This document shows positions 761 to 21,360 of a DNA stretch of 64,000 nucleotides, piece after piece; positions within the stretch are counted from its first letter, which is position 1, and each line of letters begins with the position of its first letter. Source of the stretch: Candidatus Omnitrophota bacterium (GTDB lineage: Bacteria > Omnitrophota > Omnitrophia > Omnitrophales > Aquincolibacteriaceae); NCBI GenBank assembly GCA_030698625.1, contig JAUYMS010000041.1:11314-75313 (forward strand), written 5' to 3'. The position numbers were made by a program, and so were the translations under genes. The notes under the pieces were generated by a model. The model was not told where the DNA came from and did no database searches. It was given only the letters and a program-made list of their open reading frames with translations.

Positions 761-889
761 GAGCTATATAATATGTATGGAATTAAGGATATCAACCTTA
801 ATTTTAGACACACAATATAGTGTTATCTATATCTTATTTGATTACAATAAGTTATATCGTCTTTAAAACCGCGCCAATCCCACAACGGC

Positions 890-2980
890 TTAGATCTCGC
901 TCACTGTGATGGCTGATGTGGTGAGGTTGAGCTCGAAGCGCTTTCCGTTGACCAGGGTGAAGGTCGCAAAATTACCTGCGAGACTTCCGCTGCCCGGCAA
1001 AAAGGCATAGCCGGCCGCGGCTTCTCCCGCCGGCACACGGATTTGCACCGAGCGCATCCAGTCCGCGTAGACGTCGCCCAACTTGATGACCGTAACATCC
1101 AGATAACTCACATTGGGTACGGGATCGTGATTGTGAAGGTCCGTCGTAACAATGAAGTCATTGTTGAGAAACGTCCGGCGGAAAACAGGCACCGCAGGAA
1201 TTTCCTGCCGCCTGTTCACAAGGCGGGCACGAAAAGCGCCGGTTGCGCGTTCGCGCAGGATTAAATCCTCGTTCTCGACTTCAAGCGACCACTTCTGGTC
1301 AGGCGTGACCACGATTTGAGGCGCATCAAAACGGTGCACTTCAAGCCGGCCCGCCAAATACTTCCCCTCCACGATGAAGTAAAGCGCGCGCACCCGGGTG
1401 AGGTCCACGCCGTAAGCCTGGAAGGGCGTTTTCGTGATCGCCCAGGGCTGGGGGGCATCGCTTTTAATCCCGGAAAAAATCACCGAACCCTTCTTATTGT
1501 CAGCGTCGACAATCTCAAACTTTATGCGGTCAACATCCCCGACAAAGTTAAAACCAAGGTAGGGCAGCGCAGTCAGATCAGCCGGTTGATCATAACGCCA
1601 ACCGGTTCCGGCCCAACCTTGTGCAGCGGTATTAAATTGAAAACGAATACCCAGATCGATCTGCTGAGTGTTCGCAACAATACCCGACGGTGAGACCGTG
1701 GTTGGGTACGGATCACCCGGCAGTTCCTGAATGCCTGCCGCGAGGTTCGGCTCGATCGCGGTGGGAATGCGGTTGATCTCGATCGTGCCGGTCTCATGGA
1801 CTCCTTCCACGATAAAATAAATCATGCGTACGCGGGCAAGATTAACGCCCGAGGCAGCCAGGTCCGCAGTCGAAATCACCCATTCGTCCCGCCGTTCAGC
1901 CGTAATGCTGTGCAGGTAGACCACCGCCTTACGGTTTTGGTCGTCGATGACCTCAACCTTGACCCGGTCCGGGTCTCCGCTCAGACTGAAGATCAAGCTT
2001 TCATAGCCGCTCAGATTCGCGGTTTCAATGGGCCCGGTGCCGAAGTCATCGTAGTTAAATCCTCCGCCGACCCAACCGGGCGCACCGGTATCGTAGGTCA
2101 TACGAATCCCGCGGCCCGTATCTTCAATTGAAGCCGACGCCCCATTCGGGATAACGGTGTTGTTCCGAGGCCTGCCGGGCAAGCGTGTGATATGCTCCTC
2201 GGATTGATAAATATCCGCATAGCCTGATCCGCGCGGGTACTGGTTCACCGTGACGTTTCCTGTTTGATTCTGACCTTCAACAATGAAGTAAATCACCCGT
2301 ACCCGCGACATATTTACGTTCTGAAACGCGGATCGCGGAACGGTCCACACCCGCTCAGTATCCGAACGAATACCCGTCAGATAAACGAAGGACTTCTGAT
2401 CGTTTTCGTCGACGATTTCCATTTTGAGCTGATTAATCGTACCCTGCAGCCCGAACGTGAATTCGGACAGGCGGGTCAGGTCCCCTGTTTCGATCGCACC
2501 GGTCCGGAAGTCGTCGTAGGTGAATCCTGTGCCGGCCCAACCGGGGGCCCCCGTCTCAAAGTGAAAATAGACGCCGCGGTCCTGAGAGCCACCCGTGGCC
2601 TGTGCACCGCCCGGGGTAATGAAAGTCTCCTTCGGATACCGCGAAATACCCACGGGTAAGGCGCGAATTTCGGATGTCGTACGCGATGAGGGGCCGTAAT
2701 TCGCGGGAGCGGCCTTTGCCGCCTGCGGCGTTTCGGCTGCAGACAAGGCGGCAGCGCCTAAAAACTCCGCCATCGGCTCAGCCTTAAGCGATTTCTGTGC
2801 AGATTCCACAACAGCGCCGGCCGCATCGGCATCAACGGGAACGGTAGCGACCGCGCCCCGGGGCTCTAAAATCACGGTTGAGTCGGCAGCGAATGCCGTC
2901 ATCACCGGTGTAAAGATCATGCTCATCGCAGTGACTACCGCGATGACCTCGTTTGCCGGATTGTGTTTTATCGTTTTCAT
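890..2980 (-). CDS. Secreted protein (signal peptide, Ala-rich linker) with three tandem ~115-aa repeat modules (repeat protein A). Function unknown, possibly carbohydrate-binding beta-sandwich-like.
   Basis: 696-aa ORF. The N-terminal signal is MKTIKHNPANEVIAVVTAMSMIFTPVMTAFA. It has three internal repeats sharing G-x-R-x-x-Y/F-x-T-G-A-x-G-W-x-G-x-G-F-x-Y-D-D-F ... K-x-E-I/V-V/I-D ... V-Y-L ... R-V-R-x-I-Y-F-I-V-E-G-x-x-x-T-G. An AAGGAG SD lies about 9 nt upstream of the ATG. A LacI-type operator lies about 58 bp upstream. Confidence 0.8.
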   Translation of the reverse strand: MKTIKHNPANEVIAVVTAMSMIFTPVMTAFAADSTVILEPRGAVATVPVDADAAGAVVESAQKSLKAEPMAEFLGAAALSAAETPQAAKAAPANYGPSSRTTSEIRALPVGISRYPKETFITPGGAQATGGSQDRGVYFHFETGAPGWAGTGFTYDDFRTGAIETGDLTRLSEFTFGLQGTINQLKMEIVDENDQKSFVYLTGIRSDTERVWTVPRSAFQNVNMSRVRVIYFIVEGQNQTGNVTVNQYPRGSGYADIYQSEEHITRLPGRPRNNTVIPNGASASIEDTGRGIRMTYDTGAPGWVGGGFNYDDFGTGPIETANLSGYESLIFSLSGDPDRVKVEVIDDQNRKAVVYLHSITAERRDEWVISTADLAASGVNLARVRMIYFIVEGVHETGTIEINRIPTAIEPNLAAGIQELPGDPYPTTVSPSGIVANTQQIDLGIRFQFNTAAQGWAGTGWRYDQPADLTALPYLGFNFVGDVDRIKFEIVDADNKKGSVIFSGIKSDAPQPWAITKTPFQAYGVDLTRVRALYFIVEGKYLAGRLEVHRFDAPQIVVTPDQKWSLEVENEDLILRERATGAFRARLVNRRQEIPAVPVFRRTFLNNDFIVTTDLHNHDPVPNVSYLDVTVIKLGDVYADWMRSVQIRVPAGEAAAGYAFLPGSGSLAGNFATFTLVNGKRFELNLTTSAITVSEI

Positions 2981-3038
2981 TTTTCTTTATCTCCTTGTTA
3001 TTTTTTCCCCTTGCTTCCTTCTGCCTCTGTGCCTTTAA

Positions 3039-3052
3039 TGTAAGCGCTTACA
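3039..3052. promoter_or_regulatory. Perfect 14-bp palindrome TGTAAGCGCTTACA (LacI-family operator type) in the promoter region of repeat-protein gene A, between the LacI-1 stop and the gene A start.
   Basis: Read directly: tgtaagcgcttaca is self-complementary. It matches the LacI/GalR-family consensus TGnAAnCGnTTnCA (cre/PurR-like). Confidence 0.6.
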
Positions 3053-3070
3053 CTTAAGGGCCAAAAAAAT

Positions 3071-4114
3071 TTACGCCCGGCTCACGGTCTTGCGCTCAAC
3101 GAATTCGGCAGGCAGAAGCGTTTGATTTCCGTAAAAGCCGCGGGCTGCCTTCTTACCCAGGTGACCGATCATAATCTCGGCACCCCGCTTGGCCACGTCG
3201 TAAAGCGGCATCCTCACGGTCGTAAGCGGCGGGCTCATCGTCGCAGCCGCTTTCTCATCGTCAAAGCCGACAACCGAGACGTCGCTCGGGCACTTACGGC
3301 CCGCTTTGCTTAAGTGCTGAATGGCGCCTCGCGCCATGGCATCGTTCAGGCAAAACATCGCCGAAAAATCCTTTCTCTTTTTTAAAAGTTGAGCGGCGGC
3401 CTCTTCGGCCTTCTCTTCGCGAAAATCGCCGCAGACGATCATGTCCTGATCCAAGCCGATCCCCTTTTTCTTTAGGTAACCGCGAAAGCCTTCAAGACGC
3501 AGACGGCTGTCGACCGAGCATGCGGCCCCGGTCATCACCGCTATTTTGCGGTGGCCTTGCCCGTAGAGGTATTCGGCGGCCAGTTTTCCGCCCGCCGCCT
3601 GATCGCCGCTTACGAAGTGGGCATGCACATTCTTTTCGGGATCCCCCAGAATAACGCAAGGCACACTCAGGTTACGAAATGCGGACTTATCCGAAAAGAA
3701 GGCGTGCCAATGCGTGACAATCAAGCCGTCGATTCCCTCGGCAGCTTTGAAATCGTATTTATTCCAATGGGTCTCGCCGCATTTGAGCATCAACACCTTG
3801 AAGCGGTAGGGCGTATTGAGGAGGGCATCGGAAACGCCGCAGAGTATTTGCGCATAATAATCGTTTAGGAAAACGCCTTCTCCGTGCGGCACCAAGACCC
3901 CCAATGTCCGGTACACCGCCTGAGTCAGCCCTTTAGCGGCGAGGTTCGGCGCGTACTGATGCCTGGCGATTATCGCATCCACCCGCTTGAGGGTATCCGG
4001 CGATACCTTGGAGCGCGTTTCGGGGTTCATGGCGCGCGAGACGGTCGCTATCGAGACCTTGGCCTTTTTTGCTATTTCATAAATGGTTAATTTCATTTTC
4101 CATCCTTTTTCCAT
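3071..4114 (-). CDS. LacI-family transcriptional regulator (paralog 1).
   Basis: The N-terminal HTH reads MKLTIYEIAKKAKVSIATVSRAMN, followed by a periplasmic-binding-protein-like sugar-binding domain. The true start is more likely M7 (about 4096) than 4114, because the operator sits 5 bp from the 4114 ATG. Confidence 0.9.
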   Translation of the reverse strand: MEKGWKMKLTIYEIAKKAKVSIATVSRAMNPETRSKVSPDTLKRVDAIIARHQYAPNLAAKGLTQAVYRTLGVLVPHGEGVFLNDYYAQILCGVSDALLNTPYRFKVLMLKCGETHWNKYDFKAAEGIDGLIVTHWHAFFSDKSAFRNLSVPCVILGDPEKNVHAHFVSGDQAAGGKLAAEYLYGQGHRKIAVMTGAACSVDSRLRLEGFRGYLKKKGIGLDQDMIVCGDFREEKAEEAAAQLLKKRKDFSAMFCLNDAMARGAIQHLSKAGRKCPSDVSVVGFDDEKAAATMSPPLTTVRMPLYDVAKRGAEIMIGHLGKKAARGFYGNQTLLPAEFVERKTVSRA

Positions 4115-4119
4115 ACTTC

Positions 4120-4135
4120 ATGTAAGCGCTTACAT
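4120..4135. promoter_or_regulatory. Perfect 16-bp palindrome ATGTAAGCGCTTACAT immediately upstream of LacI-1 (putative autoregulatory operator).
   Basis: Read directly. It has the same core as the 3039-3052 site. Confidence 0.6.
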
Positions 4136-4203
4136 CCTAACACCCCTCCCCCGCTCTGTCAAGCAGTGCGGGATAATATTAGGCGGGGGGCGGAACATAA
4201 AAT

Positions 4204-4270
4204 TTGACATTTCATGATATTAGGTTAGGATATGATCTGATACAGATTAAGTCTTAATAGGATATCATCT
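4204..4270 (+). promoter_or_regulatory. Divergent promoter region between LacI-1 and the cupredoxin/FTR1 pair. It contains TTGACA (4204-4209) and a 13-bp direct repeat TAGGATAT[G/C]ATCT (4227-4239 and 4258-4270).
   Basis: Read directly. An AAGGAGAA SD precedes the ATG at 4295. Assigning the -10 element is ambiguous. Confidence 0.3.
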
Positions 4271-4294
4271 TTAAAACCCCAAGGAGAAACACCC

Positions 4295-4639
4295 ATGCAC
4301 AAGCGAGTCATCCGGTTGAGCCTTATGTCCTTATGCGTTATCGGCGTGTTTTCAAGCGCCGCACTCGCAAAAGAACTTAAAACCTTTGAGATCAAAATCA
4401 AGGATCATCGCTTTGTTCCGTCTGAAATCGTTGTTCCCGCGGGTGAAAAAATTAAGCTCATCATTGAAAATCAGGATGATACCCCCGAAGAATTTGAGAG
4501 CGACTCATTGCGGCGCGAAAAAATTATCCCTGCCCATACTAAAGCACAGGTGTTTATTCCCGCGCTTAAGCCCGGCGAGTATAGCTTTGTCGGGGAGTTC
4601 CATGAAGAAACCGCACAAGGAAAATTAGTCGCCGTATAA
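4295..4639 (+). CDS. Small periplasmic cupredoxin-like protein (FtrB-like or EfeO-N-terminal-like partner of an FTR1 permease).
   Basis: 114 aa with signal peptide MHKRVIRLSLMSLCVIGVFSSAALA. It has a beta-rich mature domain and a strong SD. It lies immediately upstream of the FTR1 gene. Confidence 0.55.
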   Translation: MHKRVIRLSLMSLCVIGVFSSAALAKELKTFEIKIKDHRFVPSEIVVPAGEKIKLIIENQDDTPEEFESDSLRREKIIPAHTKAQVFIPALKPGEYSFVGEFHEETAQGKLVAV

Positions 4640-4660
4640 CAGGAGTACTTAAGGTTTTTT

Positions 4661-5554
4661 ATGCTGTCTATTTCTATTATTGTTTTTCGGGAAGTTCTGG
4701 AGATCGCCATGATCCTCGGTGTGGTGATGGCCGTCACCCGGGGATTGGTGGGGCGCAGGCGTTGGACTGCGGCCGGTATTTTAGGCGGTCTTTTGGGTTC
4801 TGCCGTCGTCGCCTATTTTACCGGAGCGATTTCAAATACGCTGGATGGAATGGGGCAGGAAGTTTTTAATGCCTTGGTTTTGATTCTGGCGACGGGACTG
4901 ATCGGTTGGACTGTGGTATGGATGAAAAGCCATAGCGCGGCTCTCGTGCGGCAAATAAAAGATGTCGGTAAATCAGTTGCCGCGGGGGAAGTCCCCCTCC
5001 ATATGTTGTCCGTTGTCGTGGGGCTCGCGATGCTTCGCGAAGGCTCAGAGATTGTCCTTTTTATTTACGGAGCGATTGCCTCCGGGACACCCTTTTTGAG
5101 TGTGCTTGCCGGGTTTACCTTTGGACTGATTTCCGGGAGTGCGGTCGGGGCGGCACTGTATTTCGGTTTATTAACCATCTCTCCCAAACATTTCTTTTCA
5201 GTAACAAGTTTTCTTCTTATATTTTTAGCTGCGGGAATGTTATTGCAGGCCGTGGGATTGTTAACGGCAGTCGGGTGGCTCCCTGAGGGAATTTCTCCTC
5301 TCTGGGACACTTCCGCAATCCTTAGCGAGAAACACGTCCTCGGTCAACTCGCGAATGCCTTGTTTGGGTATACCGCCCGGCCCTCTGCCGCTCAGGCCTT
5401 TGCCTATTTTGCAACAGTTGCAGGGCTCCTATTCTTAAATCACCTCTATTCACAACCCGGTAAGGGAAAAAACCATGTTCGCAGCAAGCGTAAGTCAAAT
5501 GAACAGACTCATCTTCTAGGGCTCGTTATTTACGGACGCTCTTCAAACACGTGA
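4661..5554 (+). CDS. High-affinity iron permease, FTR1/EfeU family.
   Basis: Polytopic membrane protein with two RExxE motifs (REVLE near the N-terminus and REGSE in the middle). Confidence 0.85.
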   Translation: MLSISIIVFREVLEIAMILGVVMAVTRGLVGRRRWTAAGILGGLLGSAVVAYFTGAISNTLDGMGQEVFNALVLILATGLIGWTVVWMKSHSAALVRQIKDVGKSVAAGEVPLHMLSVVVGLAMLREGSEIVLFIYGAIASGTPFLSVLAGFTFGLISGSAVGAALYFGLLTISPKHFFSVTSFLLIFLAAGMLLQAVGLLTAVGWLPEGISPLWDTSAILSEKHVLGQLANALFGYTARPSAAQAFAYFATVAGLLFLNHLYSQPGKGKNHVRSKRKSNEQTHLLGLVIYGRSSNT

Positions 5555-5633
5555 AATATGAGGTGGGTTATTTGTTCGGCTTATCCCGCGGCGCGCCGGA
5601 TGGTCTTTTGAAATGGATTGTTGAGGTTGAATT

Positions 5634-6056
5634 TTAAGACTTTTTCTTAGGACCCGGGAGGTTGCCGCCGGGCCCGCCTTCGCCAGAGGCCTTACGCGCT
5701 TGCATCGCAGCTTTCATCGCGGCCTTTCGCTCATCGGCCGAGCTTTTCATTTTGCCTTTACGTATCAGCGACTCCTCCGGCATCGCAGCCTCCGGCGCAA
5801 CCTTATCCTTCATCCGGGCCGCTTTCTTTTCCGCGTGCTGCCTTTCTCTTTCAGCTTTCCTTTGGGTCAAGATCCGGTCTCGCTCCCCTTTATCCTTGCC
5901 TGCCGTCTTCGCCCAATCGCTCATTTTATCGAGGGTGTTTTCCTGATGCACCTCATCATCAGCAAAGGCCGTAGCAACCGGTAGAACCGAAAAGACCATA
6001 AAACCAATCAAAAGAACCGACAGAAACTTCTTCATATTCATCTCCCTCTCTTTCAT
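5634..6056 (-). CDS. Secreted Lys/Glu/Arg/Ala-rich low-complexity protein, function unknown.
   Basis: Signal peptide MKKFLSVLLIGFMVFSVLPVATAFA, followed by a highly charged KE-rich sequence. Confidence 0.5.
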   Translation of the reverse strand: MKEREMNMKKFLSVLLIGFMVFSVLPVATAFADDEVHQENTLDKMSDWAKTAGKDKGERDRILTQRKAERERQHAEKKAARMKDKVAPEAAMPEESLIRKGKMKSSADERKAAMKAAMQARKASGEGGPGGNLPGPKKKS

Positions 6057-6074
6057 TTGTGTTACGTTTTCACC

Positions 6075-6491
6075 CTAAGACTCTTCAGGCCCGACAGTGC
6101 GGCGGAGAGTTTTTTTCTGGCCCTGTTTCTTTTTGGCGTCGAGCATTTTGTCCTTCGCTCGCTTGGAGCGCTTGCGCTTTTGCCGTTTGATTTTGGCAAT
6201 TCGGTGTGCTTCTGCGCTTTCGCGGCCGCGGATGCGGGCATCCAGCTTCTTCAGAAGGATACTGCGCGCTAAAAAGCGGTTCATCGCCTGCGAGCGTTCT
6301 TGCTGGCACCGCACGCTGAGCCCCGTAGGAATATGCTTGAGCACCACACAAGTGGAAACTTTGTTTACGTTCTGTCCGCCCGGCCCGCCGGACCGCACGA
6401 AGGTTTCCCGGAGGTCGGCTTCGCGAATGCCAAGCCGCTTCATGGCCCCGGCCAGTGCGTCATTCTTCTTTTCGGTGACCGGAAATCGCAT
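6075..6491 (-). CDS. arfB: Alternative ribosome-rescue factor ArfB (peptidyl-tRNA hydrolase, YaeJ family).
   Basis: 138 aa. The GGQ motif appears in GGPGGQNVNKVSTCV. It has a basic C-terminal tail typical of ArfB. Confidence 0.85.
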   Translation of the reverse strand: MRFPVTEKKNDALAGAMKRLGIREADLRETFVRSGGPGGQNVNKVSTCVVLKHIPTGLSVRCQQERSQAMNRFLARSILLKKLDARIRGRESAEAHRIAKIKRQKRKRSKRAKDKMLDAKKKQGQKKTLRRTVGPEES

Positions 6492-6494
6492 GGG

Positions 6495-6707
6495 CTAGGT
6501 GGTCACGATCACTTGCCCGTCAAACTCAATTCGCTGACCCGGGCGCACTTTAAAGGCCTTACGGGTTTCGATGACCCCGTTCACCTTCACCTGCGAACCG
6601 GCAATGACCTGCTTGGCAAACCCGCCGCTCTCACAAAGCCCCATTAATTTGAGGAGCTTGAAGAGTTCGATGTACTCGGTTTTTAGCGAAAATTCAATTT
6701 GCGGCAT
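6495..6707 (-). CDS. S4-domain RNA-binding protein (YbcJ-like).
   Basis: 70 aa. It resembles E. coli YbcJ (LLKL.G...SGG.AK..I..G.V.V.G..ETRK). Its stop lies 4 nt from the arfB start. Confidence 0.8.
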   Translation of the reverse strand: MPQIEFSLKTEYIELFKLLKLMGLCESGGFAKQVIAGSQVKVNGVIETRKAFKVRPGQRIEFDGQVIVTT

Positions 6708-6713
6708 GGTGAA

Positions 6714-8105
6714 TTATGGCTTCACGACAAACACCACATCTCCTTCGCCGTCGAGGCGGCCGAACTGGGGCGTCTGAAGATTGTTGGAGGCACGCGACAC
6801 TTGCGGTTTGAGAAAGGCCCCAAGCTCGGAGGCTGTTACCACGTTGTCATTGTCGCGGTCGGCTTCTCCGTCGAGGCCCCTCAGCAGATATTCGGTGAAG
6901 ACACCGTGGCCCTCACGCTCCATCACTTGTTCTCCTTTACCACCGGCGGTGATCATTTGGATCGACCGCATGCCGGTTATTTTCTGAATGTACCCGTTAA
7001 TGCCGGGATCGATTCCCGCCGCACGGGTAAAGCCAAGCCCTGAATAACAGGCATCCATCATATAGAGCATGTGCTTCGCCGGAATGCGGCGGGAAAGCGC
7101 TCTGATTTGGTCCATTGAGATCGCTGTCGTGAAATAATTGGTGATGTCGCCGTCTACGGGAATAATGTATCCCTGCTCTTTGCCGTCAGTCAGGGTTTCT
7201 GTCTGTCCGTGCCCTGCGAAGAAAAGCACAACCCTATCTTCGGCCCCGACTTTCTTAGGCAGCTCGCTTGCTAGCAATGTCAGAATCCTTGTGCGTGTGG
7301 CGTCTTTATCCAGGACTTCAATGACCTCGTCAAAACCGATTGCCTCAAGTTTTTGCTTCACGGCCCGCGCATCATTGACCGCATATTCCAGAGACGGCCA
7401 GAGATCATAGTTGTTGATACCGATTACGACGGCCCAGCTTTTTTGGTAATAATCTCCGGTTTCGAGTTCGCTCGCTTCAGGCGGCCCGAGTTCACCCCTT
7501 ACCGGAGCGGAAATCACGCGACGCTCGGCAAAGGCAATGAGGGGCGAAGAATGGTCGAGATTGTCCGCGAACTTGGAGAAAGTTTCCTGCAAGACCTTGC
7601 GGAAGCCATAGCTCCAGGGCGACGCCGTGGCCTTGCCGCCGCCTTCGATCGTATCGAGGATTTTCTGATCACGGTTCATCAACGTGCCCGTGAGGTCCAC
7701 CGTGGTTGTATTGAAACTTCGTTGACCCAGGGTGCAAAGCAGATCCACGGACATAACTAGATCGGCTTCGCCTTGTAGAGCTGCCTCAATACTCTCAAAT
7801 TGAACCACACTTTTAAAACGCTTCTCAAGGATTTCCTGCAAACCCACCGTGACCAGATCCGCACCAATGTCGCTGGTCGCGAGCGGATAGGCCACCTTCG
7901 CCAATCTCTTATTCTCTTCAATGTAGTCGAACGCCCTTTTGGCATTCTCTGTGTGCACGATGCCGAGTTTTAGTTTTCCGAGAGGCCCGCTTTGACCCCC
8001 GGCCGACCTCAGGGCAGAGACGGGATCCAAATAGCTGGGCGTTGAAACGCAACCCGACATCCATAAGAGTACGGCACCGGTGAGCCAGAAGTTTCTTGAG
8101 ATCAT
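6714..8105 (-). CDS. Lipoprotein with a C-terminal peptidase C14 (caspase/orthocaspase) domain.
   Basis: Start reassigned to the ATG at 8103-8105 (MISRNFWLTGAVLLWMSGC, lipobox Cys; GGAG SD 10 nt upstream). The caspase fold shows the His-Gly (FFAGHGQ) and Asp-Ala-Cys (MMDACYSG) catalytic dyad context. A C-terminal DGEADRDNDNVVTASEL motif is typical of bacterial caspase homologs. Confidence 0.8.
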   Translation of the reverse strand: MISRNFWLTGAVLLWMSGCVSTPSYLDPVSALRSAGGQSGPLGKLKLGIVHTENAKRAFDYIEENKRLAKVAYPLATSDIGADLVTVGLQEILEKRFKSVVQFESIEAALQGEADLVMSVDLLCTLGQRSFNTTTVDLTGTLMNRDQKILDTIEGGGKATASPWSYGFRKVLQETFSKFADNLDHSSPLIAFAERRVISAPVRGELGPPEASELETGDYYQKSWAVVIGINNYDLWPSLEYAVNDARAVKQKLEAIGFDEVIEVLDKDATRTRILTLLASELPKKVGAEDRVVLFFAGHGQTETLTDGKEQGYIIPVDGDITNYFTTAISMDQIRALSRRIPAKHMLYMMDACYSGLGFTRAAGIDPGINGYIQKITGMRSIQMITAGGKGEQVMEREGHGVFTEYLLRGLDGEADRDNDNVVTASELGAFLKPQVSRASNNLQTPQFGRLDGEGDVVFVVKP

Positions 8106-8176
8106 TCCCTGTTCTCCATGATATCTGTTTCGGCCATTCAGGCTGAAATCCCAAGGGAAGGATACGCGCAGGAACG

Positions 8177-9400
8177 CTAGGGGGCAAGGGCGGACCAAAG
8201 CTCCTGAAGCTTGGCGTAGGCCGGGCGAAGCCGGGTCTTGAAGTTCGTGCCTTCTTTTTCTATCGCAGCCAGCCCGAACCACTCTTCGACATCATCCGGA
8301 CTCTGTTCTAAGGAATCTTCTTTCCCGAATTTCCACCACGCATCTAGATATTCGTGCACGACCATTCCGGCAATGGGCGACGACGCCGTCGTGATGTCGC
8401 GCCAACTCTGCTCAAGACCTGTCGCTTGCTCTTCCGGCGTGTTGCCGCCGTATCCGTAATCGGGCGATCCGTAATGCTCGGCACCCGGCGCAACGCTTAA
8501 GCCTGTTTCCGTGACCAGCAGGAGTTTGTTCGGGTGCTTGCGTTTAAGCTGCTCGAGCCAACCCTGGAAGAGGGTCCCGGTAGCCGACCCTTCATCCGCC
8601 TGCGCATATTCTAAAACGGCGTAACTGTATGCATTGAAGCTTCTGAAATCGAGAAACGTTGTGTCCAGCAAATCGTAAGTCCGGGCTTCGTTGGCGTAGG
8701 AGACAAGATGCGTATGTCCGTAGCGTTCTGTCTGGTAGGTCTTAAGGTAATCCGCTATTTCAGCGATGAAGCTCTCGGTCGCCGTCGAACCTTTCGGTGC
8801 GCTGATATACTTCCCGTCATAGCCGCTGATTTCGGGATGGAGATCATCGGTCGATTCCACACTCGCCCGGCTCAGTTCACTGCCGACGATAAAGCCAAGG
8901 ATGGGCGGGGGTTCTTCTTCGGAGTAAACCGAATAGATGCGGCTTAACGTGAGACGAATCGCATGCTGACAGCGGCGTTTATAGGAAACATTCTGTAAGT
9001 CCTTCTGACTTGGGTCAAACCAGATCGTCTGAATGAAGGCCAGGTCCCCGGCATCCTTCAAGGCCTCATAGACAAAAACGGGAACTTCCCAGAGGCGAAT
9101 CGTGTTGGCGCCCGCCCCTTTGATGTCGTCGATATCCCGGCGAATCCGCGCCTTCAAGGGCTCCGGCAGATCCGTTTTCCGGACAAGCTCCCAAGGGACT
9201 TCGCCCGGATAAACGGGGACATAGACAATGCCTTTGACGAGGAACTTTTCGCCTTCTTGGAAAAAGTAATCGTCACCCAATTCGAATTCGGCGGCCGAAA
9301 CGGGCGCAACGAACGACCCCAAACAAAGACAGAAAGCCGCAACCCATTTCACCCATCCCCTTCCAAAGATATTTGAGCACCGTCTTTTATTCATGCGCAT
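8177..9400 (-). CDS. Secreted GH5-like (clan GH-A, TIM-barrel) glycoside hydrolase.
   Basis: Signal peptide present. GANTIRLW is the typical N-terminal GH5 strand. An NEA/NEP-like acid/base motif appears in VSYANEART. A nucleophile-like motif appears in LLLVTETGLS. Confidence 0.55.
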   Translation of the reverse strand: MRMNKRRCSNIFGRGWVKWVAAFCLCLGSFVAPVSAAEFELGDDYFFQEGEKFLVKGIVYVPVYPGEVPWELVRKTDLPEPLKARIRRDIDDIKGAGANTIRLWEVPVFVYEALKDAGDLAFIQTIWFDPSQKDLQNVSYKRRCQHAIRLTLSRIYSVYSEEEPPPILGFIVGSELSRASVESTDDLHPEISGYDGKYISAPKGSTATESFIAEIADYLKTYQTERYGHTHLVSYANEARTYDLLDTTFLDFRSFNAYSYAVLEYAQADEGSATGTLFQGWLEQLKRKHPNKLLLVTETGLSVAPGAEHYGSPDYGYGGNTPEEQATGLEQSWRDITTASSPIAGMVVHEYLDAWWKFGKEDSLEQSPDDVEEWFGLAAIEKEGTNFKTRLRPAYAKLQELWSALAP

Positions 9401-9446
9401 ATAAAAATAACGGGCAGTAACCGACGCGTTTCATCGGCTACTGCCC
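9401..9446 (-). terminator. Rho-independent terminator downstream of repeat-protein gene B.
   Basis: The hairpin stem is GGGCAGTA (9412-9419) pairing with TACTGCCC (9439-9446), with an inner CCGA/TCGG. On the minus strand it is followed by GTTATTTTTATAT. It directly abuts the start codon of the GH5-like gene. Confidence 0.5.
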
Positions 9447-9512
9447 TAGATAGCGGTGCCCTCTCTGCGTCTGAAAGGGAGATAGTTATCAAAGTCACCG
9501 CCTCCGTTAATG

Positions 9513-11804
9513 TTAGCCAATCTGTCGCACTTCCAGAGTCGACAAGTTCACTTCGTAGATCATGGTGACGCCGTCGACCACGGCTTCGATAATCGCAATG
9601 CCCGGCAGCCATTGAATTAATCGGAGCGTGAGCCCCGTCGTGAAATGCGGGATTTCAACTTTGACCGACGGGTCGTCGAGACTTTGCACAACGATGGTTA
9701 TGTCCTTGGGATTGCCGGCATAGCCGCCGTCGGGCGAAACATCGTAAACATCACTGAACGCGTCGCGAAACCCGACGCCTTTACTCATGTTCACGAGTTC
9801 CGTTTCTTCGCCTGTCAGAATATTCACCACCGCAAGCCGCTGCTGATACCACCCCGAAAAGCCCGAGTAGGTATAGGAGTCGATAAACCAATAATCCGGA
9901 TTACTGGCGGAGGGAACAAACACTCCGGTTAAAGGAGATTCGAGTCCGAAAATATGCGTCTCGAGATGTCCGGGAACATCATAGACCGCATACTTGCCGT
10001 CGAGGATCACGTCGTGATTCTGAGTGCCGTCGGTAAACGTGATGATTTGGCTTTCTCCGGTCCGAAAATCCATTACTTCTAAAATGCCGTCCCTGCGGAA
10101 TCCGAAACGGGGATCTGAGGGGGCCGGCGCCCACCCTGAAAAATCGACAGGGACATGGGTAAACTCCATCGCCCCCGTCTGCTGCGGCCCTTCTACGATC
10201 ACGAAGATCATGCGAAGGCGCGTGAGATCGATCCCCTGTAAATACGAAGCGGGAATGCGATACATTAATTCTTGGTCAGGCCGGATGCCCTCGACGTAAA
10301 CCGCACGCTTATTGTCAAAGGCATCGACAAACTCCAATTTTACGGTGGCGGCATCACCTTTGAGACCGAATACAAATTCGGGATATCCGCCGGCATCAAA
10401 TGACTCAACCACGGCAGTCGCAAAATCATCAAAGGTCAATCCGCTCCCGGCCCAGGTCGCGTTATTGGTTTGATAATCCATATGCAATCCCCTAGCCGTA
10501 GCCGTTGACGTAACCGTGGCCTCGACAGGCGCGATCACCATCGCGGATGCGGGGGGCAGCTGCGTGTGGTCTGAAAGCAATCCGTCGTCGACCGGAACCA
10601 CCCCGGGAATAATACCCTTGGAAGGCGTTTGATAGAGGATGTCGAGAGTTCCCGTCTCATAGGCCCCTTCGAGAATGAAATACATGATCCGAATTCTCGT
10701 GAGATCAATGCCTGAGAAAGCCGCTGTCGGGATATTCCAAAACTGAGTCGTATCGGACTCGATTCCGGATAGATAAATTACGGCTCTTTGGTTCCATTCA
10801 TCGATGACTTCGAGTTTCACTTGTGCCGCGTCACCGCGAAGACCGATGATCAATTCCGGATAGTAGCGCATATCCACGGTTTCGGTCTGAGCGGTCGAGA
10901 AATCATCGAAGGTCAGTCCCCCGCCTGACCAGCCGTCGGCCCCGTTTGCGTAGTTAAGGCGCACTCCCCGTGAAGTCGTCTCGATAGCCGTTTGAGAATC
11001 CGGAGGCGCGACCACCGTCTGCTGCGGCAAATAGGTACCGTTGGTGCTCCAGGTCTCGGGAAGTCGCGTGACCTGATTCACGGTTAGATCAGCGTCCGGA
11101 TTGACCGATCCTGCCTCAACCGGCTGAATGTTCATTTCCAGTTTCCCGGTTTGATACTGACCTTCCACGATAAAATACAGAAGCCGCGTGTTGCTCAGAT
11201 CCACCCCTTGAAACCGGCTGGTATCGATGACCCACACCTGCTCCTGCTGCGAAAGAATTCCCGTTAAATGAACGGAACTTTTATTGTTATTCACGTCCAC
11301 AATTTCAAACTTGAGGGTCGAGACATCGCCCTTAAGCCCGATGATAAGCTGTGATGTTGCGGACAAATCCATGGATCCGGCCGAATCGAACGAAAACCCG
11401 CCTCCGGCCCAACCCGCCCATGATGTGTCATAGTTCATGACAGCGCCGCGTCCCGTCGGCGAAATCGAAGCCATCCAAGACTGAGCCGAGACCGTTACGG
11501 GATCGGGATCCGGAACCGGCAAAGGCTCAATATCGGTGACATCCTTATCTTGTGAAGGACTTATGGGCCCCTCCGCCGATGCCGCAGAAAGCGGCCCGTC
11601 GGGAACGGTTGAATCCGAAACGACCGCCACGGCCTCTTCGGCAGATGCCTTGTCTTCGGCTGCCGCAAGGCTCATCACAGGTGTGAATTGCCCCATTGCG
11701 TTTTGACCGATGGTCTGTTCGGCATAACCGATAGGCGAAACGCTTGTGACCATAAAGAAAATAACTGTTGTTAAAGCGAGTTTCGAAAGTGGATTGTTTT
11801 TCAT
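9513..11804 (-). CDS. Secreted protein with three tandem ~115-aa repeat modules (repeat protein B, paralog of 890..2980) plus a distinct ~200-aa C-terminal domain.
   Basis: 763 aa with signal peptide. It has the same module signature (GW.G.G..FDDF ... K.E.VD ... R.R..YFIVEG..TG) three times. It lies 40 bp downstream of LacI paralog 2. Confidence 0.8.
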   Translation of the reverse strand: MKNNPLSKLALTTVIFFMVTSVSPIGYAEQTIGQNAMGQFTPVMSLAAAEDKASAEEAVAVVSDSTVPDGPLSAASAEGPISPSQDKDVTDIEPLPVPDPDPVTVSAQSWMASISPTGRGAVMNYDTSWAGWAGGGFSFDSAGSMDLSATSQLIIGLKGDVSTLKFEIVDVNNNKSSVHLTGILSQQEQVWVIDTSRFQGVDLSNTRLLYFIVEGQYQTGKLEMNIQPVEAGSVNPDADLTVNQVTRLPETWSTNGTYLPQQTVVAPPDSQTAIETTSRGVRLNYANGADGWSGGGLTFDDFSTAQTETVDMRYYPELIIGLRGDAAQVKLEVIDEWNQRAVIYLSGIESDTTQFWNIPTAAFSGIDLTRIRIMYFILEGAYETGTLDILYQTPSKGIIPGVVPVDDGLLSDHTQLPPASAMVIAPVEATVTSTATARGLHMDYQTNNATWAGSGLTFDDFATAVVESFDAGGYPEFVFGLKGDAATVKLEFVDAFDNKRAVYVEGIRPDQELMYRIPASYLQGIDLTRLRMIFVIVEGPQQTGAMEFTHVPVDFSGWAPAPSDPRFGFRRDGILEVMDFRTGESQIITFTDGTQNHDVILDGKYAVYDVPGHLETHIFGLESPLTGVFVPSASNPDYWFIDSYTYSGFSGWYQQRLAVVNILTGEETELVNMSKGVGFRDAFSDVYDVSPDGGYAGNPKDITIVVQSLDDPSVKVEIPHFTTGLTLRLIQWLPGIAIIEAVVDGVTMIYEVNLSTLEVRQIG

Positions 11805-11844
11805 ATTGTTGTCCTGTTAAATTTATTTTATTGTCCTGCGAACG

Positions 11845-12876
11845 CTAAACTTCTCGGACTGATCCCCGCTCAACAATCGAAACCGGGGAATAACAAGGTT
11901 TGCAAAACCCCGCATCCTTTTTGTGTCTTATCTGTTCGATAAGATCCGTGGCCGCTTTTTTGGCCAAATCATAAACAGGCGCCTGCACGGTCGTAAGCGG
12001 CGGGGAGGAGTGCTCCGTGCGCATATCGTCGTCATAACCCATGACGGAAAGTCTCCCCGGACAGTCAACGCCGCGTTCGCGAAGCCGCCTAAGAATACCC
12101 AGCGCTTGAATATCGTTCATACAAAATACGGCCGTAAACTCCGGCTTACGGGCCAGCAGGTCGTCGGTAATCTCGTAAGCCCGCTGCTCGTCAAAGTCGA
12201 CCTTAAAAATCGAATCGTCATCGACCGTAATTCCCTTTTCTTCCAGGTAAGTTTTAAATCCCCTGAACCGCTCGCGGATGTCGGGCGAATACGGTATGCC
12301 GTAAAGGGTGGCGATACGGCGGTGCCCATGATCGTACAGGTATTTCGCGGCCATTCGCCCCCCGCTGAAATGATCGCCGGCTACAAACCGGGCTTTTATG
12401 TCCTCTTCTACGTTATTGATGATGACGCTCGGGATTGTGAACCGGTTAAACACTTGGCCGCCGGAAAATATGGTTCGCCAATAAGTAAGGATCACTCCGT
12501 CGACACCTTCCCCGTCTTTGATGTTGTAGTGATCCCATCTCGGTTTCTCGGGTTTCATGAGAATCATTTTTAAGCGAAACTCCGTATCCAGAAGAGCGTC
12601 GGCAACGCCCGATATGATTTGGGAGTAGTATTCGGAAAGAAGAATTCCCGTATGATGCGGGAACACGACCCCGATCGCCTGATAGGCGGTCTTTCTAAGA
12701 TTTTGCGCAGCAAGATTCGGGGTGTAGTGGCACTTCTTGACGAGGGCATCGATTTTTTTTAGGGTTTGAGGGGCCACCTTATGCCTTGTTTCGGGATTCA
12801 GGACTCGCGAGATCGTCGCGATTGATACCCCAGCCTTGGCCGCCAATTCACGTATGTCGTTTTTTGTCTTTTCCAT
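11845..12876 (-). CDS. LacI-family transcriptional regulator (paralog 2).
   Basis: The HTH reads IRELAAKAGVSIATISRVLN, followed by a sugar-binding domain. It is clearly paralogous to 3071..4114. Confidence 0.9.
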   Translation of the reverse strand: MEKTKNDIRELAAKAGVSIATISRVLNPETRHKVAPQTLKKIDALVKKCHYTPNLAAQNLRKTAYQAIGVVFPHHTGILLSEYYSQIISGVADALLDTEFRLKMILMKPEKPRWDHYNIKDGEGVDGVILTYWRTIFSGGQVFNRFTIPSVIINNVEEDIKARFVAGDHFSGGRMAAKYLYDHGHRRIATLYGIPYSPDIRERFRGFKTYLEEKGITVDDDSIFKVDFDEQRAYEITDDLLARKPEFTAVFCMNDIQALGILRRLRERGVDCPGRLSVMGYDDDMRTEHSSPPLTTVQAPVYDLAKKAATDLIEQIRHKKDAGFCKPCYSPVSIVERGSVREV

Positions 12877-12888
12877 ATCCGTTCTCTT

Positions 12889-12904
12889 ATGTAAACGTTT
12901 ACAT
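12889..12904. promoter_or_regulatory. Perfect 16-bp palindrome ATGTAAACGTTTACAT, 12 bp upstream of the LacI-2 start (putative operator).
   Basis: Read directly. It has the same arms as the LacI-1 operators but the central core is AACGTT instead of AGCGCT. Confidence 0.6.
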
Positions 12905-13056
12905 CATAGTACCGCATAATGTCCCGTTCGTCAATGATCAGGTGTAAAAACGTCCGAGAATAATCGTTCACTATCTATAGGTTTAAGAGTTAAGCTATGA
13001 ATCGCGGCGGGCCGTATATCTTCACCTGTCCTAACAGAGACAGTTAACCCGTAGAC

Positions 13057-20454: not shown

Positions 20455-21360
20455 CTATGCCGACTCACGCAAGATGACTTCCGGCTTGAATTTGATTTGA
20501 GCGGCGCGGCGAAGCTTGCCCGAAATAATGCCGAGAAGGATCTCGACTGCCTTCTTGCCCATGGCCGCGGTAGGTTGCCGAACAGAGGTGAGCGTCGGGC
20601 TCATGACTTCGTTTACCGGCGAGTCGTCAAAACCGGCCACCGCGATCTCGGCAGGTACGTGGATCTTATGCCTTCGAAGAATGCGGATAGCTCCGTGGGC
20701 AATATCGTCGTTGGCGCAGAGGATGACTTCGGGCCGGGCCGCGGCAGTAATGAGGCTTTTCATAATGTCATGGGGCAGGCGCTCGCTGAAATGACTGCTT
20801 TCATAGGTAAAAGCCGGGTCATAAGTCAACTTGAGCCGCCGGAGTCCGTGCTTAAAAGCCTCATAGCGTGCCTTGGCGTCCCGTGAACCCGACTCGGGGC
20901 CTCGAATCATGCCGAATCGGCGGTACCCCTTGCGGCGCAGTTTTTCGAGCAGAGTGAAAATGGCCGTCTCGTTCTCGCAATATAATATGCTGTTGCGAAT
21001 CGTCTTATCGTGATCGTTAACTAGGACAGCCGGCAGGAGTTTAGCTTTCATCATTTCGGAGACAATCCGCGGCAGATGGCGCCAAATAAAAAAGATAATG
21101 CCGTCCACGCGATGGCGCTCGAGAAGGCTCTTGAAAGTGATTTGCTTCTGCTCCCGGTCGCGGACAGGAAGCCATTTCAGATCCCAGCCTGAATGAGGCC
21201 GAAGGCCTTCGAGGACACCGGCGATCAACTCTTCAAAATAGGGACTCCGTGCCGCTTCGGCACGAAACGGAAGCACAATACCGATCGTCCGAATAGGTGC
21301 CCCGCTTTTGTCACCCCTCATAGGACGCCGCCAATCTGAAATTTTCGCCGCATTTGCCAT
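20455..21360 (-). CDS. LacI-type periplasmic-binding-fold (sugar-binding domain) protein that lacks the N-terminal HTH domain.
   Basis: 301 aa. It aligns to the ligand-binding/dimerisation domain of the two LacI paralogs (for example AVAGFDDSPV...MSPTLTSVRQP versus VVGFDDEKAAATMSPPLTTVRMP). The N-terminus MANAAKISDWRRPMRGDK has no HTH. No HTH is encoded upstream in any frame. Confidence 0.7.
   Translation of the reverse strand: MANAAKISDWRRPMRGDKSGAPIRTIGIVLPFRAEAARSPYFEELIAGVLEGLRPHSGWDLKWLPVRDREQKQITFKSLLERHRVDGIIFFIWRHLPRIVSEMMKAKLLPAVLVNDHDKTIRNSILYCENETAIFTLLEKLRRKGYRRFGMIRGPESGSRDAKARYEAFKHGLRRLKLTYDPAFTYESSHFSERLPHDIMKSLITAAARPEVILCANDDIAHGAIRILRRHKIHVPAEIAVAGFDDSPVNEVMSPTLTSVRQPTAAMGKKAVEILLGIISGKLRRAAQIKFKPEVILRESA

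Follow-up and report, generated by a model that had tools for sequence, protein, structure and literature searches.

Two paralogous LacI-family cassettes from Candidatus Omnitrophota and the apparent covariation of their operator cores with repressor residues

The stretch of DNA analyzed here (hereafter the window) comprises 64 kb from a Candidatus Omnitrophota MAG and harbors two cassettes, each made up of a gene encoding a LacI-family repressor followed by a gene encoding a large repeat protein. All four cassette ORFs lie on the minus strand (Table 1), with gaps of 90 bp between lacI-1 and gene A (2981..3070) and of 40 bp between lacI-2 and gene B (11805..11844). When re-derived from the sequence, the ORFs, the gaps and three perfect palindromes fell exactly where the original prediction had placed them. 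The true start of LacI-1 is probably the ATG at 4096, which is preceded by a AAGGATGG ribosome-binding site and corresponds to the position at which its orthologues begin. Both repressors are recognized by the Pfam models for the LacI helix-turn-helix (PF00356; 51.7 and 41.7 bits, cut-off 27) and for Peripla_BP_3 (PF13377; 103.7 and 113.5 bits, cut-off 26.5), and LacI-2 is a 100% match to an Omnitrophota MAG protein named as a LacI-family regulator. Among NCBIfam equivalogs, the best ones for the two proteins (RbsR, CytR, CcpA and PurR) all scored far below their cut-offs.

Table 1. Coordinates of the cassette genes, putative regulatory sites and protein modules in the window.
Feature	Position	Strand	Description
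LacI-1	3071..4114	-	347 aa; LacI-family repressor (Pfam); residues Y5, I15, A16, R20, L54, T55
Repeat protein A	890..2980	-	696 aa
LacI-2	11845..12876	-	343 aa; LacI-family repressor (Pfam); residues R5, I15, A16, R20, L54, R55
Repeat protein B	9513..11804	-	763 aa; starts 40 bp past lacI-2
Putative operator O1a	4120..4135		ATGTAAGCGCTTACAT, GCGC core; overlaps last -10 bases and covers likely transcription start
Putative operator O1b	3039..3052		TGTAAGCGCTTACA; 18 nt past lacI-1 stop, 58 nt ahead of A start
Putative operator O2	12889..12904		16-mer ATGTAAACGTTTACAT, ACGT core; 2 nt past -10, ends 14 nt before LacI-2 start codon
lacI-1 promoter-like site	4134..4162	-	TTGACA, 17 nt, TAGGAT, TG extension; 10/12 matches (promoter scan)
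lacI-2/B operon promoter-like site	12906..12934	-	TTGACG, 17 nt, TACTAT (promoter scan)
Putative gene A promoter	3037..3064	-	TTGGCC, 16 nt, TACATT; inferred by eye
Terminator-like hairpin	9412..9446	-	15-bp stem, 9 GC pairs, T-rich tail; 67 nt past B stop
A module 1	2231..2641	-	aa 114-250; A2 profile 187.3 bits
A module 2	1754..2179	-	aa 268-409; A2 profile 183.3 bits
A module 3	1322..1720	-	aa 421-553; A2 profile 135.9 bits
B module 1	11115..11510	-	aa 99-230; A2 profile 169.9 bits
B module 2	10620..11027	-	aa 260-395; the modelled module
B module 3	10143..10547	-	aa 420-554; A2 profile 167.0 bits

The two repressors are 44% identical over 339 aa (E=1e-112), and proteins A and B, each with three internal repeats, are 33% identical (E=1e-82). 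Orthologous regulator and target pairs are found in other MAGs, with A-type pairs in loci L001/L002 and L003, and with a LacI-2-like C-terminus preceding B-type targets in L005/L006. These comparisons confirm, at the level of sequence, that the cassettes are true paralogues which appear to have been co-duplicated anciently. No match was returned by megablast of cassette 1 against cassette 2 and their longest common exact word is 19 nt, so the duplication looks old, in line with the original prediction; a recent duplication or gene conversion was ruled out, the cassettes being devoid of DNA-level similarity.

Related loci were identified by scanning contigs with a LacI alignment (A1), a scan of genome contigs with LacI-2 alone having returned no match. 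The clade to which both repressors belong was found almost only in Omnitrophota/PVC MAGs, and its loci follow a common layout, in which a TTGACA promoter and an operator precede lacI, usually followed by a second operator about 18 bp past the stop codon and by one large secreted cargo gene. Across 34 loci (~240 kb), 31 of the 32 exact palindromic sites flank a LacI of this clade. The cargo of the clade includes arrays of CBM11-like modules as well as other orphan proteins, the latter of 600 to more than 1300 aa, and most cargo genes present no recognizable carbohydrate function.

In the window, the pattern TGTAA-N4-TTACA occurs three times versus 0.02 expected, and none of 100 shuffles yielded three or more matches. 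The palindromes were predicted to sit at operator positions, and they do: TGTAAGCGCTTACA, with a GCGC core, is present at 3039-3052 and 4121-4134, and TGTAAACGTTTACA, with an ACGT core, at 12890-12903. Operators of the LacI family are characteristically even palindromes centered on CG and located near the regulated promoter; those of the window, 14-16 bp long and likewise centered on CG, overlap the -10/+1 region of both lacI promoters, an arrangement kept in more than 20 loci. The 14-mer of O1a recurs, identical and in the same place, in ten loci; a second operator lies 16-19 nt past the LacI stop codon, as O1b does, in ten; and the ACGT core of O2 also precedes, in three, genes for LacI-2-like proteins that combine Arg55 with Ile15. 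The architecture of the lacI-1 promoter is kept in orthologues, and a TTGACA-type -35 element is kept across clade loci at the distance from the operator seen for lacI-2. Their abutment on or overlap with sigma-70-like promoters, their conserved positions and their near-exclusive occurrence beside LacI genes therefore support the notion that the palindromes behave as operators. Autoregulation is common in the LacI family, according to Ravcheev et al. (2014, PMC4052901).

The wiring of the two cassettes differs, and the contrast between one and two operators is conserved among orthologous pairs in other MAGs. In cassette 1, the putative promoter of gene A is absent from the promoter scan list because its -35 element is weak; its -10-like hexamer coincides with the right arm of O1b, and in most loci with a downstream operator an A/T-run leads into a TTG that lies 8-9 nt ahead of that operator. 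The T-run past the lacI stop codons was considered as an intrinsic terminator and rejected, with no consistent GC hairpin ahead of it across loci; it is read here as a probable part of a -35 element, or as sequence upstream of one. DNA looping between O1a and O1b, which lie 1,082 bp apart, was also considered and is judged improbable. Both repressors end at about 340 aa, a length that presumably leaves no room for the LacI-type C-terminal tetramerisation helix, and they are thus assumed to be dimers. Cassette 2 has no operator in its 40-bp gap, and the arrangement of a single operator with co-transcription, put forward on inspection of the window, recurs in L005, L006 and L008. The strong terminator-like hairpin past B would close this cassette and part B from the glycosidase-like gene downstream.

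The genes between the cassettes encode cupredoxin/FTR1, caspase and glycosidase-like proteins. Pfam matches agree with the FTR1 and caspase labels given to them in the original prediction. The label "GH5-like" for the glycosidase-like protein (8177..9400) may be roughly right: it has no Pfam or NCBIfam match at threshold, and its residues 247-384 only match PDB 9fz9, a "GH2 catalytic domain-containing protein" (E=8.6e-18), a chain match that makes the protein a candidate glycosidase of clan GH-A type. The proposal that these genes belong to the same sugar-responsive regulon is unsupported, since no operator-like site was found at them with up to 3 mismatches allowed, nor were they found as conserved neighbors in other loci. 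Over the whole 64-kb window, the same relaxed search (≤3 mismatches to either 14-mer) gave no extra match to the ACGT site and three to the GCGC site (46627, 58751 and 59562) versus 1.4 expected; these were dismissed as regulon members, since two fall within ORFs, good palindromes are absent among them and their number is near chance.

The residues through which LacI-family proteins read their operators were compared between the two repressors, with the hinge register checked by alignment to CcpA and LacI chains. In both hinges (NLAAKGLT in LacI-1, NLAAQNLR in LacI-2), AA-51 is Ala and AA-54 is Leu. The arm-reading residues AA-15, AA-16 and AA-20 are identical (I, A and R), as are the operator arms, and differences were found at the core-linked positions AA-55 (T versus R) and AA-5 (Y versus R), as might be predicted for diverged repressor/operator pairs; identity of the two repressors at all base-contacting positions, which would have spoken against the original prediction, was thus not observed. 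The recognition code worked out for LacI-family proteins by Camas et al. (2010, PMC2978694) ties operator position NT-2 to AA-55, AA-15 and AA-5. The same association is seen across the clade: a residue other than Arg at AA-55 together with Tyr at AA-5 goes with a GCGC core in 13/13 loci, LacI-1 among them, and Arg at AA-55 goes with an ACGT or TCGA core in 15/15 loci, including LacI-2. The association between AA-55 and NT-2 (G with non-Arg; A or T with Arg) yields a Fisher P of 2.7e-8, uncorrected for phylogeny, and Tyr at AA-5, present in 13/13 of the non-Arg group versus 2/14 of the Arg group, yields P=6e-6 (Fisher, shared ancestry ignored), while Val or Ile at AA-15 separates TCGA from ACGT cores. 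On a tree of effector domains (neighbor joining, no support values), residue and core states are intermingled, which would imply at least three independent switches. This pattern supports covariation of the operator core with residues of the published recognition code.

Both A and B begin with a signal-peptide-like stretch, identified by eye (...TAFA/ADS in A and ...IGYA/EQT in B, the slash marking the putative cleavage point), and carry three CBM11-like modules. Their C-terminal domains, of 142 aa in A and of 209 aa and all-beta in B, are unrelated to each other. The three internal repeats of each protein and their A2 profile matches bear out the triple-repeat architecture first noticed in the sequence. 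Neither A, B nor their C-terminal domains had any Pfam or NCBIfam match, and an AF2 model of the C-terminal 212 aa of B (3 sequences) was unusable (pLDDT 47). The predicted structure of the module is a beta-jelly-roll of the CBM11/30 type. Weak sequence matches to CBM_11 and CIA30 were also seen: no repeat reached the Pfam CBM_11 gathering threshold (PF03425), and 5 of 49 repeats gave weak CBM_11 matches (best E=0.0016), the window repeat scanned first not being among them. When the repeat alignment was run as a profile against PDB, only a marginal match of CBM32 type emerged (E=0.048). The module spans about 135 aa, has motifs of its own (GWAGGGF-FD, VK-E-VD, YFIVEG) and occurs in 424 cluster representatives of 1.84 billion proteins. 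Its tandem arrays range from 2 to about 22 copies, and it is often repeated many times over in very large proteins, with up to about 22 copies in proteins of 4,000-7,000 aa. CBM family 11 binds beta-1,4 or beta-1,3-1,4 glucans in a cleft of the concave face lined by aromatic residues; the alignment columns in which the module conserves Trp, Phe, Asp, Lys and Glu are compatible with such a cleft and uninformative as to its presence. Neither A nor B has an attached catalytic domain, and both are most likely glycan-binding or surface-recognition proteins, as judged from the modelled fold.

Taken together, we consider it likely that the window contains two local, co-duplicated LacI cassettes in which each repressor acts at its own operator, probably insulated from the other, and whose products bind glycans or surfaces. 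The difference between the cores might instead be neutral, with both repressors binding both cores in one cross-regulated circuit. The identity of the arms and recognition-helix residues, the single differing position per half-site and the mixed cores of some relatives (ACGC in one locus, GCGT in two, ACGA in two), suggestive of tolerance at NT-2, would all fit such a circuit, which is nevertheless improbable, because NT-2 changes in perfect step with AA-55 and AA-5 over 28 loci and did so in several independent switches, and because experiments on PurR established the role of AA-55 in its central-base preference (Glasfeld 1999, as cited in PMC2978694). Far less probable still is that the palindromes are bound by another factor, such as a global CcpA-like regulator, with the LacI genes as bystanders. 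Among PDB chains, those of CcpA are the top matches to the LacI-1 DNA-binding domain (E about 1e-10), and the LacI-1 operator is identical to the idealised cre consensus. A global regulator would, however, be expected at numerous sites of unvarying motif, whereas the sites found here lie almost only beside clade LacI genes, with none elsewhere in the window, and their core changes along with the contact residues of the neighboring LacI.

A third alternative leaves the proposed regulation untouched and concerns its targets, the modules being protein-binding or structural spacers in cell-surface or adhesion proteins that serve contact with hosts or prey, and the effector not a sugar set free from a polymer. 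The failure of the module to reach the CBM_11 threshold, its identity of at most 17% to any CBM, the occurrence of the same fold in CIA30/NDUFAF1, phage turret and tail proteins and a flagellar sheath protein, the long arrays in very large proteins, the discussion of Omnitrophota giant proteins as adhesins (PMC10066038) and the unrelated orphan secreted proteins that make up other cargo of the clade all lend it weight. We regard it as possible, if less likely than glycan binding by the modules, to which the CBM11/30-type fold points.

Under the favored reading of two insulated cassettes, a dimeric LacI-type repressor would bind the 14-16 bp palindrome that lies across -10/+1 of the promoter driving its own gene and, when free of effector, presumably a carbohydrate, would block RNA polymerase, so that each repressor would be autoregulated. 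In cassette 1, O1b, located inside a weak promoter, would gate gene A separately; in cassette 2, B would be co-transcribed with lacI-2 up to the terminator and controlled from the one operator. Both repressors would read the TGTAA/TTACA arms through I15, A16 and R20 and insert Leu54 at the central CG. At the base next to this CG, Tyr5/Thr55 of LacI-1 would read the GCGC core, with its CcpA/cre-like center, and Arg5/Arg55 of LacI-2 the ACGT core, with its PurR-like center. As the repressors differ at the residues reading NT-2, the two pairs are probably insulated from each other, which would amount to avoidance of cross-talk; partial cross-binding is conceivable because the cores differ by one symmetric base pair per half-site.

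In itself, this would be a clean but expected example of a duplicated LacI and its operator changing jointly at recognition-code positions. A modest lead for Omnitrophota biology is a LacI clade that is, so far, almost confined to Omnitrophota/PVC MAGs and in which each regulator is paired with one large secreted orphan protein; no mention of LacI was found in the Omnitrophota literature considered (including PMC10066038). Over ~28 loci the rule is near-binary, resting on Arg or non-Arg at residue 55 with residues 5 and 15 assisting, and it could inform the engineering of orthogonal switches of LacI type. We can only speculate, and think it rather unlikely, that lacI and its two flanking promoter-operator units form a portable driver, used again and again in Omnitrophota to bring single large secreted or surface proteins of very different kinds under effector control. 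In that case GCGC, ACGT and TCGA would be three mutually orthogonal operator classes set by residues 5, 15 and 55, and several driver modules could coexist in one small genome. Were the cargoes the suspected host- or prey-contact proteins, the cassettes would offer a first regulatory handle on that lifestyle, and sugar cues from partner surfaces might switch on the matching binding proteins in these nanobacteria. The CBM11-like module, for which there is no Pfam model, is a second modest lead for Omnitrophota biology.

Several known systems resemble the one described here. As in the LacI recognition code (PMC2978694), the operators of the clade are even palindromes centered on CG, AA-54 is Leu, Arg20 pairs with G at NT-6 and AA-15/AA-16 with the arm bases, and NT-2 covaries with AA-55, AA-15 and AA-5. 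The code differs here in being near-binary within one young clade (non-Arg55/Tyr5 with GCGC, Arg55/Ile15 with ACGT, Arg55/Val15 with TCGA), and in coming from a phylum, Omnitrophota, not mentioned in the consulted passages of those surveys. Co-duplication of a LacI regulator and its target followed by divergence has been described for GntR/IdnR and AglR/ThuR (Ravcheev et al. 2014, PMC4052901), which likewise are local, apparently autoregulated and changed in motif after joint duplication. Unlike those pairs, the cassettes here have a single secreted target with multiple CBM-like modules and no catabolic operon or transporter, and differ from each other in wiring, with two operators versus one and co-transcription.

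LacI-1 resembles CcpA of Firmicutes in its Tyr5, Ala16, Arg20, Leu54 and small residue 55, and its operator TGTAAGCGCTTACA equals the optimal cre palindrome; unlike CcpA, it appears to be local, with sites at its own cassette only, and it is not a CcpA, given 155 bits against the cut-off of 442 of the NCBIfam ccpA model (TIGR01481; 132 bits for LacI-2). The operator of enterobacterial PurR has an A-CG-T center, and PurR has basic residues at AA-55 and AA-5, as does LacI-2, whose operator arms and recognition-helix residues differ from those of PurR. With 151 bits on the NCBIfam PurR model, where the cut-off is 501, LacI-2 is not a PurR. CBM11, CBM30 and CIA30 are grouped in the Pfam galactose-binding-domain clan. 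Compared with CBM family 11 (CtCBM11 of Lic26A-Cel5E, PDB 1v0a/6r3m), the module of A and B is set apart by its identity of 15-17% to CBMs, its own motifs and its arrangement in tandem arrays free of an attached catalytic domain.

The sequence evidence lends good support to the interpretation of the two cassettes, each a LacI repressor gene next to a gene for a repeat protein (lacI-1 with A, lacI-2 with B), as a co-duplicated and presumably autoregulated repressor/target pair in which predicted operators and base-contacting residues would have diverged in step. The four open reading frames lie where the original prediction had placed them, in one orientation, with intergenic gaps of 90 bp (cassette 1) and 40 bp (cassette 2). 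Both LacI-1 and LacI-2 present a LacI HTH and a Peripla_BP_3 effector domain above Pfam thresholds; a Pfam scan of A and B returned no family for either. The proposed protein-level homology is borne out by identities of 44% between LacI-1 and LacI-2 (E=1e-112) and of 33% between A and B, which have three internal repeats. Since no DNA-level similarity is left between the cassettes, the longest word in common being 19 nt, the duplication is old, as had been supposed from the lack of long identical DNA. An 87.9-kb contig of a Candidatus Omnitrophota MAG encodes proteins with 100% identity to A, B and LacI-2. Among the loci of relatives (L001-L038), a LacI-1-like gene immediately precedes close relatives of A in L001/L002, from a groundwater metagenome, and in L003, from a further Omnitrophota MAG, and relatives of B (57-61% identity) are each preceded by a LacI-2-like C-terminus (L005, L006); no LacI neighbour was found at an Elusimicrobia homologue (L004) or at L007. 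The presence of A-type and B-type regulator and target pairs in other loci therefore indicates that regulator and target were co-duplicated before the lineages split, a type of LacI regulon evolution described by Ravcheev et al. 2014 (PMC4052901).

With LacI-2 as query, 40 homologues of at least 41% identity were recovered; those that carry a name all belong to Omnitrophota or to MAGs annotated as uncultured bacterium or Planctomycetia. Scans with the LacI clade alignment added 33 further loci. The stretch immediately following the recognition helix sets all clade members in this alignment apart from CcpA and LacI by two inserted residues and a conserved NPETRxKV(A/S)P motif, which constitute a clade signature. 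Another protein encoded in the window (301 aa) has the LacI-type effector domain (Peripla_BP_3/Peripla_BP_1) but no HTH; tblastn aligned it with LacI-1 and LacI-2 at 25% identity, starting only at residue 66. This HTH-less LacI paralogue could serve as a decoy or form heterodimers, or may just be a binding protein.

Features of the cassettes and their surroundings (window coordinates)
Feature	Position	Strand	Remarks
Gene 3' of A	1..~759	minus	
Promoter-like site of gene 3' of A	795..768		TTGATA-16-TATTAT
Repeat protein A	890..2980	minus	ORF
Putative gene A promoter	3064..3037		TTGGCC-16-TACATT; not listed by consensus promoter scan
Palindrome O1b, GCGC core	3039-3052		exact TGTAA-N4-TTACA match
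LacI-1	3071..4114	minus	ORF
Palindrome O1a, GCGC core	4121-4134		exact TGTAA-N4-TTACA match
lacI-1 promoter-like site	4162..4134		TTGACA-17-TAGGAT; overlaps O1a
Promoter-like site of cupredoxin/FTR1 pair	4204..4231		about 70 bp from O1a
Cupredoxin/FTR1 pair	4295..5554	plus	
Caspase-domain (Peptidase_C14) protein	6714..8282	minus	
Glycosidase-like protein	8177..9400	minus	407 aa, secreted-looking
Terminator-like hairpin	9412-9446		
Repeat protein B	9513..11804	minus	ORF
LacI-2	11845..12876	minus	ORF
Palindrome O2, ACGT core	12890-12903		exact TGTAA-N4-TTACA match
lacI-2 promoter-like site	12934..12906		TTGACG-17-TACTAT; ends 2 nt before O2
HTH-less LacI-type protein	20455..21360	minus	

A pattern search for TGTAA-N4-TTACA over the 64-kb window identified exactly three matches, against 0.02 expected, a number reached in none of 100 shuffles. 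They coincide with the palindromes originally predicted as operators, which have the same arms and differ in their cores. Such palindromes are not abundant at random positions, as 31 of the 32 exact sites found across 34 loci (~240 kb) flank a clade LacI gene. The sole other site (L015, 955-968, ACGT core) precedes a lacI by 3 kb and may be the mark of a displaced target gene; this lacI lacks a nearby operator, and its product has Trp and Arg at DNA-reading positions 5 and 55 (AA-5, AA-55). Nearly every clade lacI presents the same upstream order of a TTGACA-type -35 element, ~17 nt, a -10 element and the palindrome. In at least 10 loci, including cassette 1, the palindrome is repeated 16-19 nt after the lacI stop codon; an A/T-run and TTG precede this copy, and its right arm provides a TACAT-type -10-like hexamer. 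We infer that this arrangement would form a promoter, with the operator embedded in it, for the gene that follows.

Camas et al. 2010 (PMC2978694) showed for the LacI family that Leu at AA-54 is inserted at the central CG, G at operator base NT-6 pairs with Arg at AA-20, NT-5/4 pair with AA-15/16, and NT-2, the base flanking CG, correlates most with AA-55, then with AA-15 and then with AA-5, the role of AA-55 having been demonstrated for PurR. I15, A16, R20 and L54 are common to LacI-1 and LacI-2, and fit the identical arms and central CG of both cassettes. The two repressors differ at AA-55 (Thr in LacI-1, Arg in LacI-2) and at AA-5 (Tyr versus Arg), and are thus not identical in their base-contacting residues, in line with the divergence originally proposed. 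Counted over non-redundant loci, G occupies NT-2 in all 13 loci with a residue other than Arg at AA-55 (T, V, M, S, C, G), 12 of them with a full GCGC core and one with a mixed ACGC, and A or T does so in 15 of 15 loci with Arg (cores ACGT, TCGA or ACGA), an association with a Fisher p of 2.7e-8 by a statistic that ignores phylogeny. Tyr at AA-5 is found in 13/13 of the non-Arg-55 group versus 2/14 of the Arg-55 group (p=6e-6), and among Arg-55 proteins ACGT occurs with Ile15 and TCGA with Val15. The AA-55 and core states are interspersed on a neighbor-joining tree of effector domains only, which carries no bootstrap support: L010, L012 and L022 (T/V/S, GCGC) fall inside the LacI-2-like Arg group, and L033 (G, GCGC) is placed among Arg proteins. 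On this tree, the pattern implies at least three independent coupled residue/core switches. Because of this residue-base match, the best reading of the two cassettes would be as two insulated repressor/operator pairs.

Cassette 1 harbors two predicted operators, at the lacI-1 promoter and before A, and cassette 2 only O2. No operator-like site was identified in the 40-bp gap between lacI-2 and B, even with 3 mismatches, and a gap operator is also absent in L008, the nearest LacI-2 relative with full context, and in the loci of the B orthologues, L005 and L006. The one-operator, predicted co-transcribed layout is therefore conserved. A terminator-like hairpin with a 15-bp stem lies 67 nt after B. 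The gene 3' of A comes with a separate promoter-like site, which suggests that A is monocistronic; the product of that gene, starting MKTPYPTKTLGPKSAHLLNQLQKNGK..., resembles by eye AbiEi-type antitoxin or transcriptional-regulator proteins. A third wiring variant is found in one subclade, with two tandem operators 62-73 bp apart after lacI (L026, 5078 and 5140; L030, 2203 and 2265; L032, 2468 and 2541), the first of them lying behind a promoter-like site with TTGACA that is close to consensus; the N-terminal motif ...MVNLSPAY.P.LIKGLT.H is common to the cargo proteins of these loci.

The suggestion that the genes between the cassettes (FTR1, caspase, GH5-like) belong to the same regulon is not supported, since a mismatch-tolerant search of the window found no operator-like sites at the caspase-domain and glycosidase-like genes and no gene of the interval is kept as a neighbour at other loci; the cupredoxin/FTR1 pair, moreover, has its own promoter-like site. 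The glycosidase-like protein matches PDB 9fz9 (E=8.6e-18; 9fz9/9g4n, 'GH2 catalytic domain-containing protein', E about 1e-17, residues 247-384) and no Pfam or NCBIfam family; a terminator-like hairpin separates its gene from cassette 2. For the caspase-domain protein, the best NCBIfam match ('caspase, EACC1-associated type') is under cut-off, the GTG annotated as start codon overlaps with the upstream gene, and an internal Met is followed by ...LLWMSGC, lipoprotein-signal-like by eye.

A and B have N-termini that by eye look like Sec signal peptides, and their ~135-aa module recurs in 2-5 copies in 29 homologues of variable architecture. Its AF2 model, obtained from a 49-sequence alignment, is confident and all-beta (pLDDT 93, pTM 0.87), and Foldseek matched it to 1v0a, the structure of CtCBM11 (E=2.2e-6, TM about 0.6). 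At the sequence level, matches to Pfam CBM_11 came from just 5 of the 49 repeats (best E=0.0016), and matches to CIA30 from 2. Given a fold match with only a few weak sequence matches, the module shares the CBM11 fold and falls short of CBM11 family membership. Among 1.84 billion cluster representatives, 424 proteins matched the profile of the module (290 of them with E up to 1e-10), and many of these are very large, with up to about 22 copies (among P0070-P0203, P0093 has 4261 aa and 22 matched stretches, P0080 4267 aa and 20, and P0111 7110 aa). This CBM11-like module, for which there is no Pfam model, would deserve to be defined as a domain family of its own. At their C-termini, A and B carry mutually unrelated domains of 142 and 209 aa, respectively, each kept in its own orthologues; the model of the B domain (pLDDT 47) is unusable.

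What follows a clade lacI gene is nearly always a single large ORF on the same strand, its N-terminus resembling a signal peptide. About one third of these cargo ORFs contain the module, clearly in L001, L003, L023, L024, L028 and L031 and weakly in L012, L016 and L022. The others are orphans with few Pfam matches: one Peptidase_M26_N, one amino-acid permease and two B12-binding radical-SAM proteins. The permease or a ~950-aa radical-SAM protein replaces the secreted orphan in L010 (5118-6539), L018 (5342-8200) and L038 (5047-7965), and the targets of the clade are therefore not uniformly carbohydrate-related. Omnitrophota have been described as encoding many large, poorly annotated extracellular proteins with proposed roles in adhesion or polysaccharide degradation (PMC10066038; bioRxiv 10.1101/2023.11.21.568195), and neither account mentions LacI.

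Repression, response to an effector (presumably a carbohydrate), orthogonality and glycan binding are predicted for these cassettes. The kind of feature is already known; new are the phylum, the conserved 'driver' layout of two operators combined with large, variable secreted cargo, the simple three-residue rule for three core classes and the CBM11-like module family, not yet filed. Neither LacI-1 nor LacI-2 qualifies as CcpA or PurR under NCBIfam cut-offs. Among solved structures, CcpA is nearest to the LacI-1 DNA-binding domain, and the LacI-1 operator is identical to the idealised cre palindrome; LacI-2, with basic residues at positions 5 and 55 and an ACGT centre, resembles PurR.
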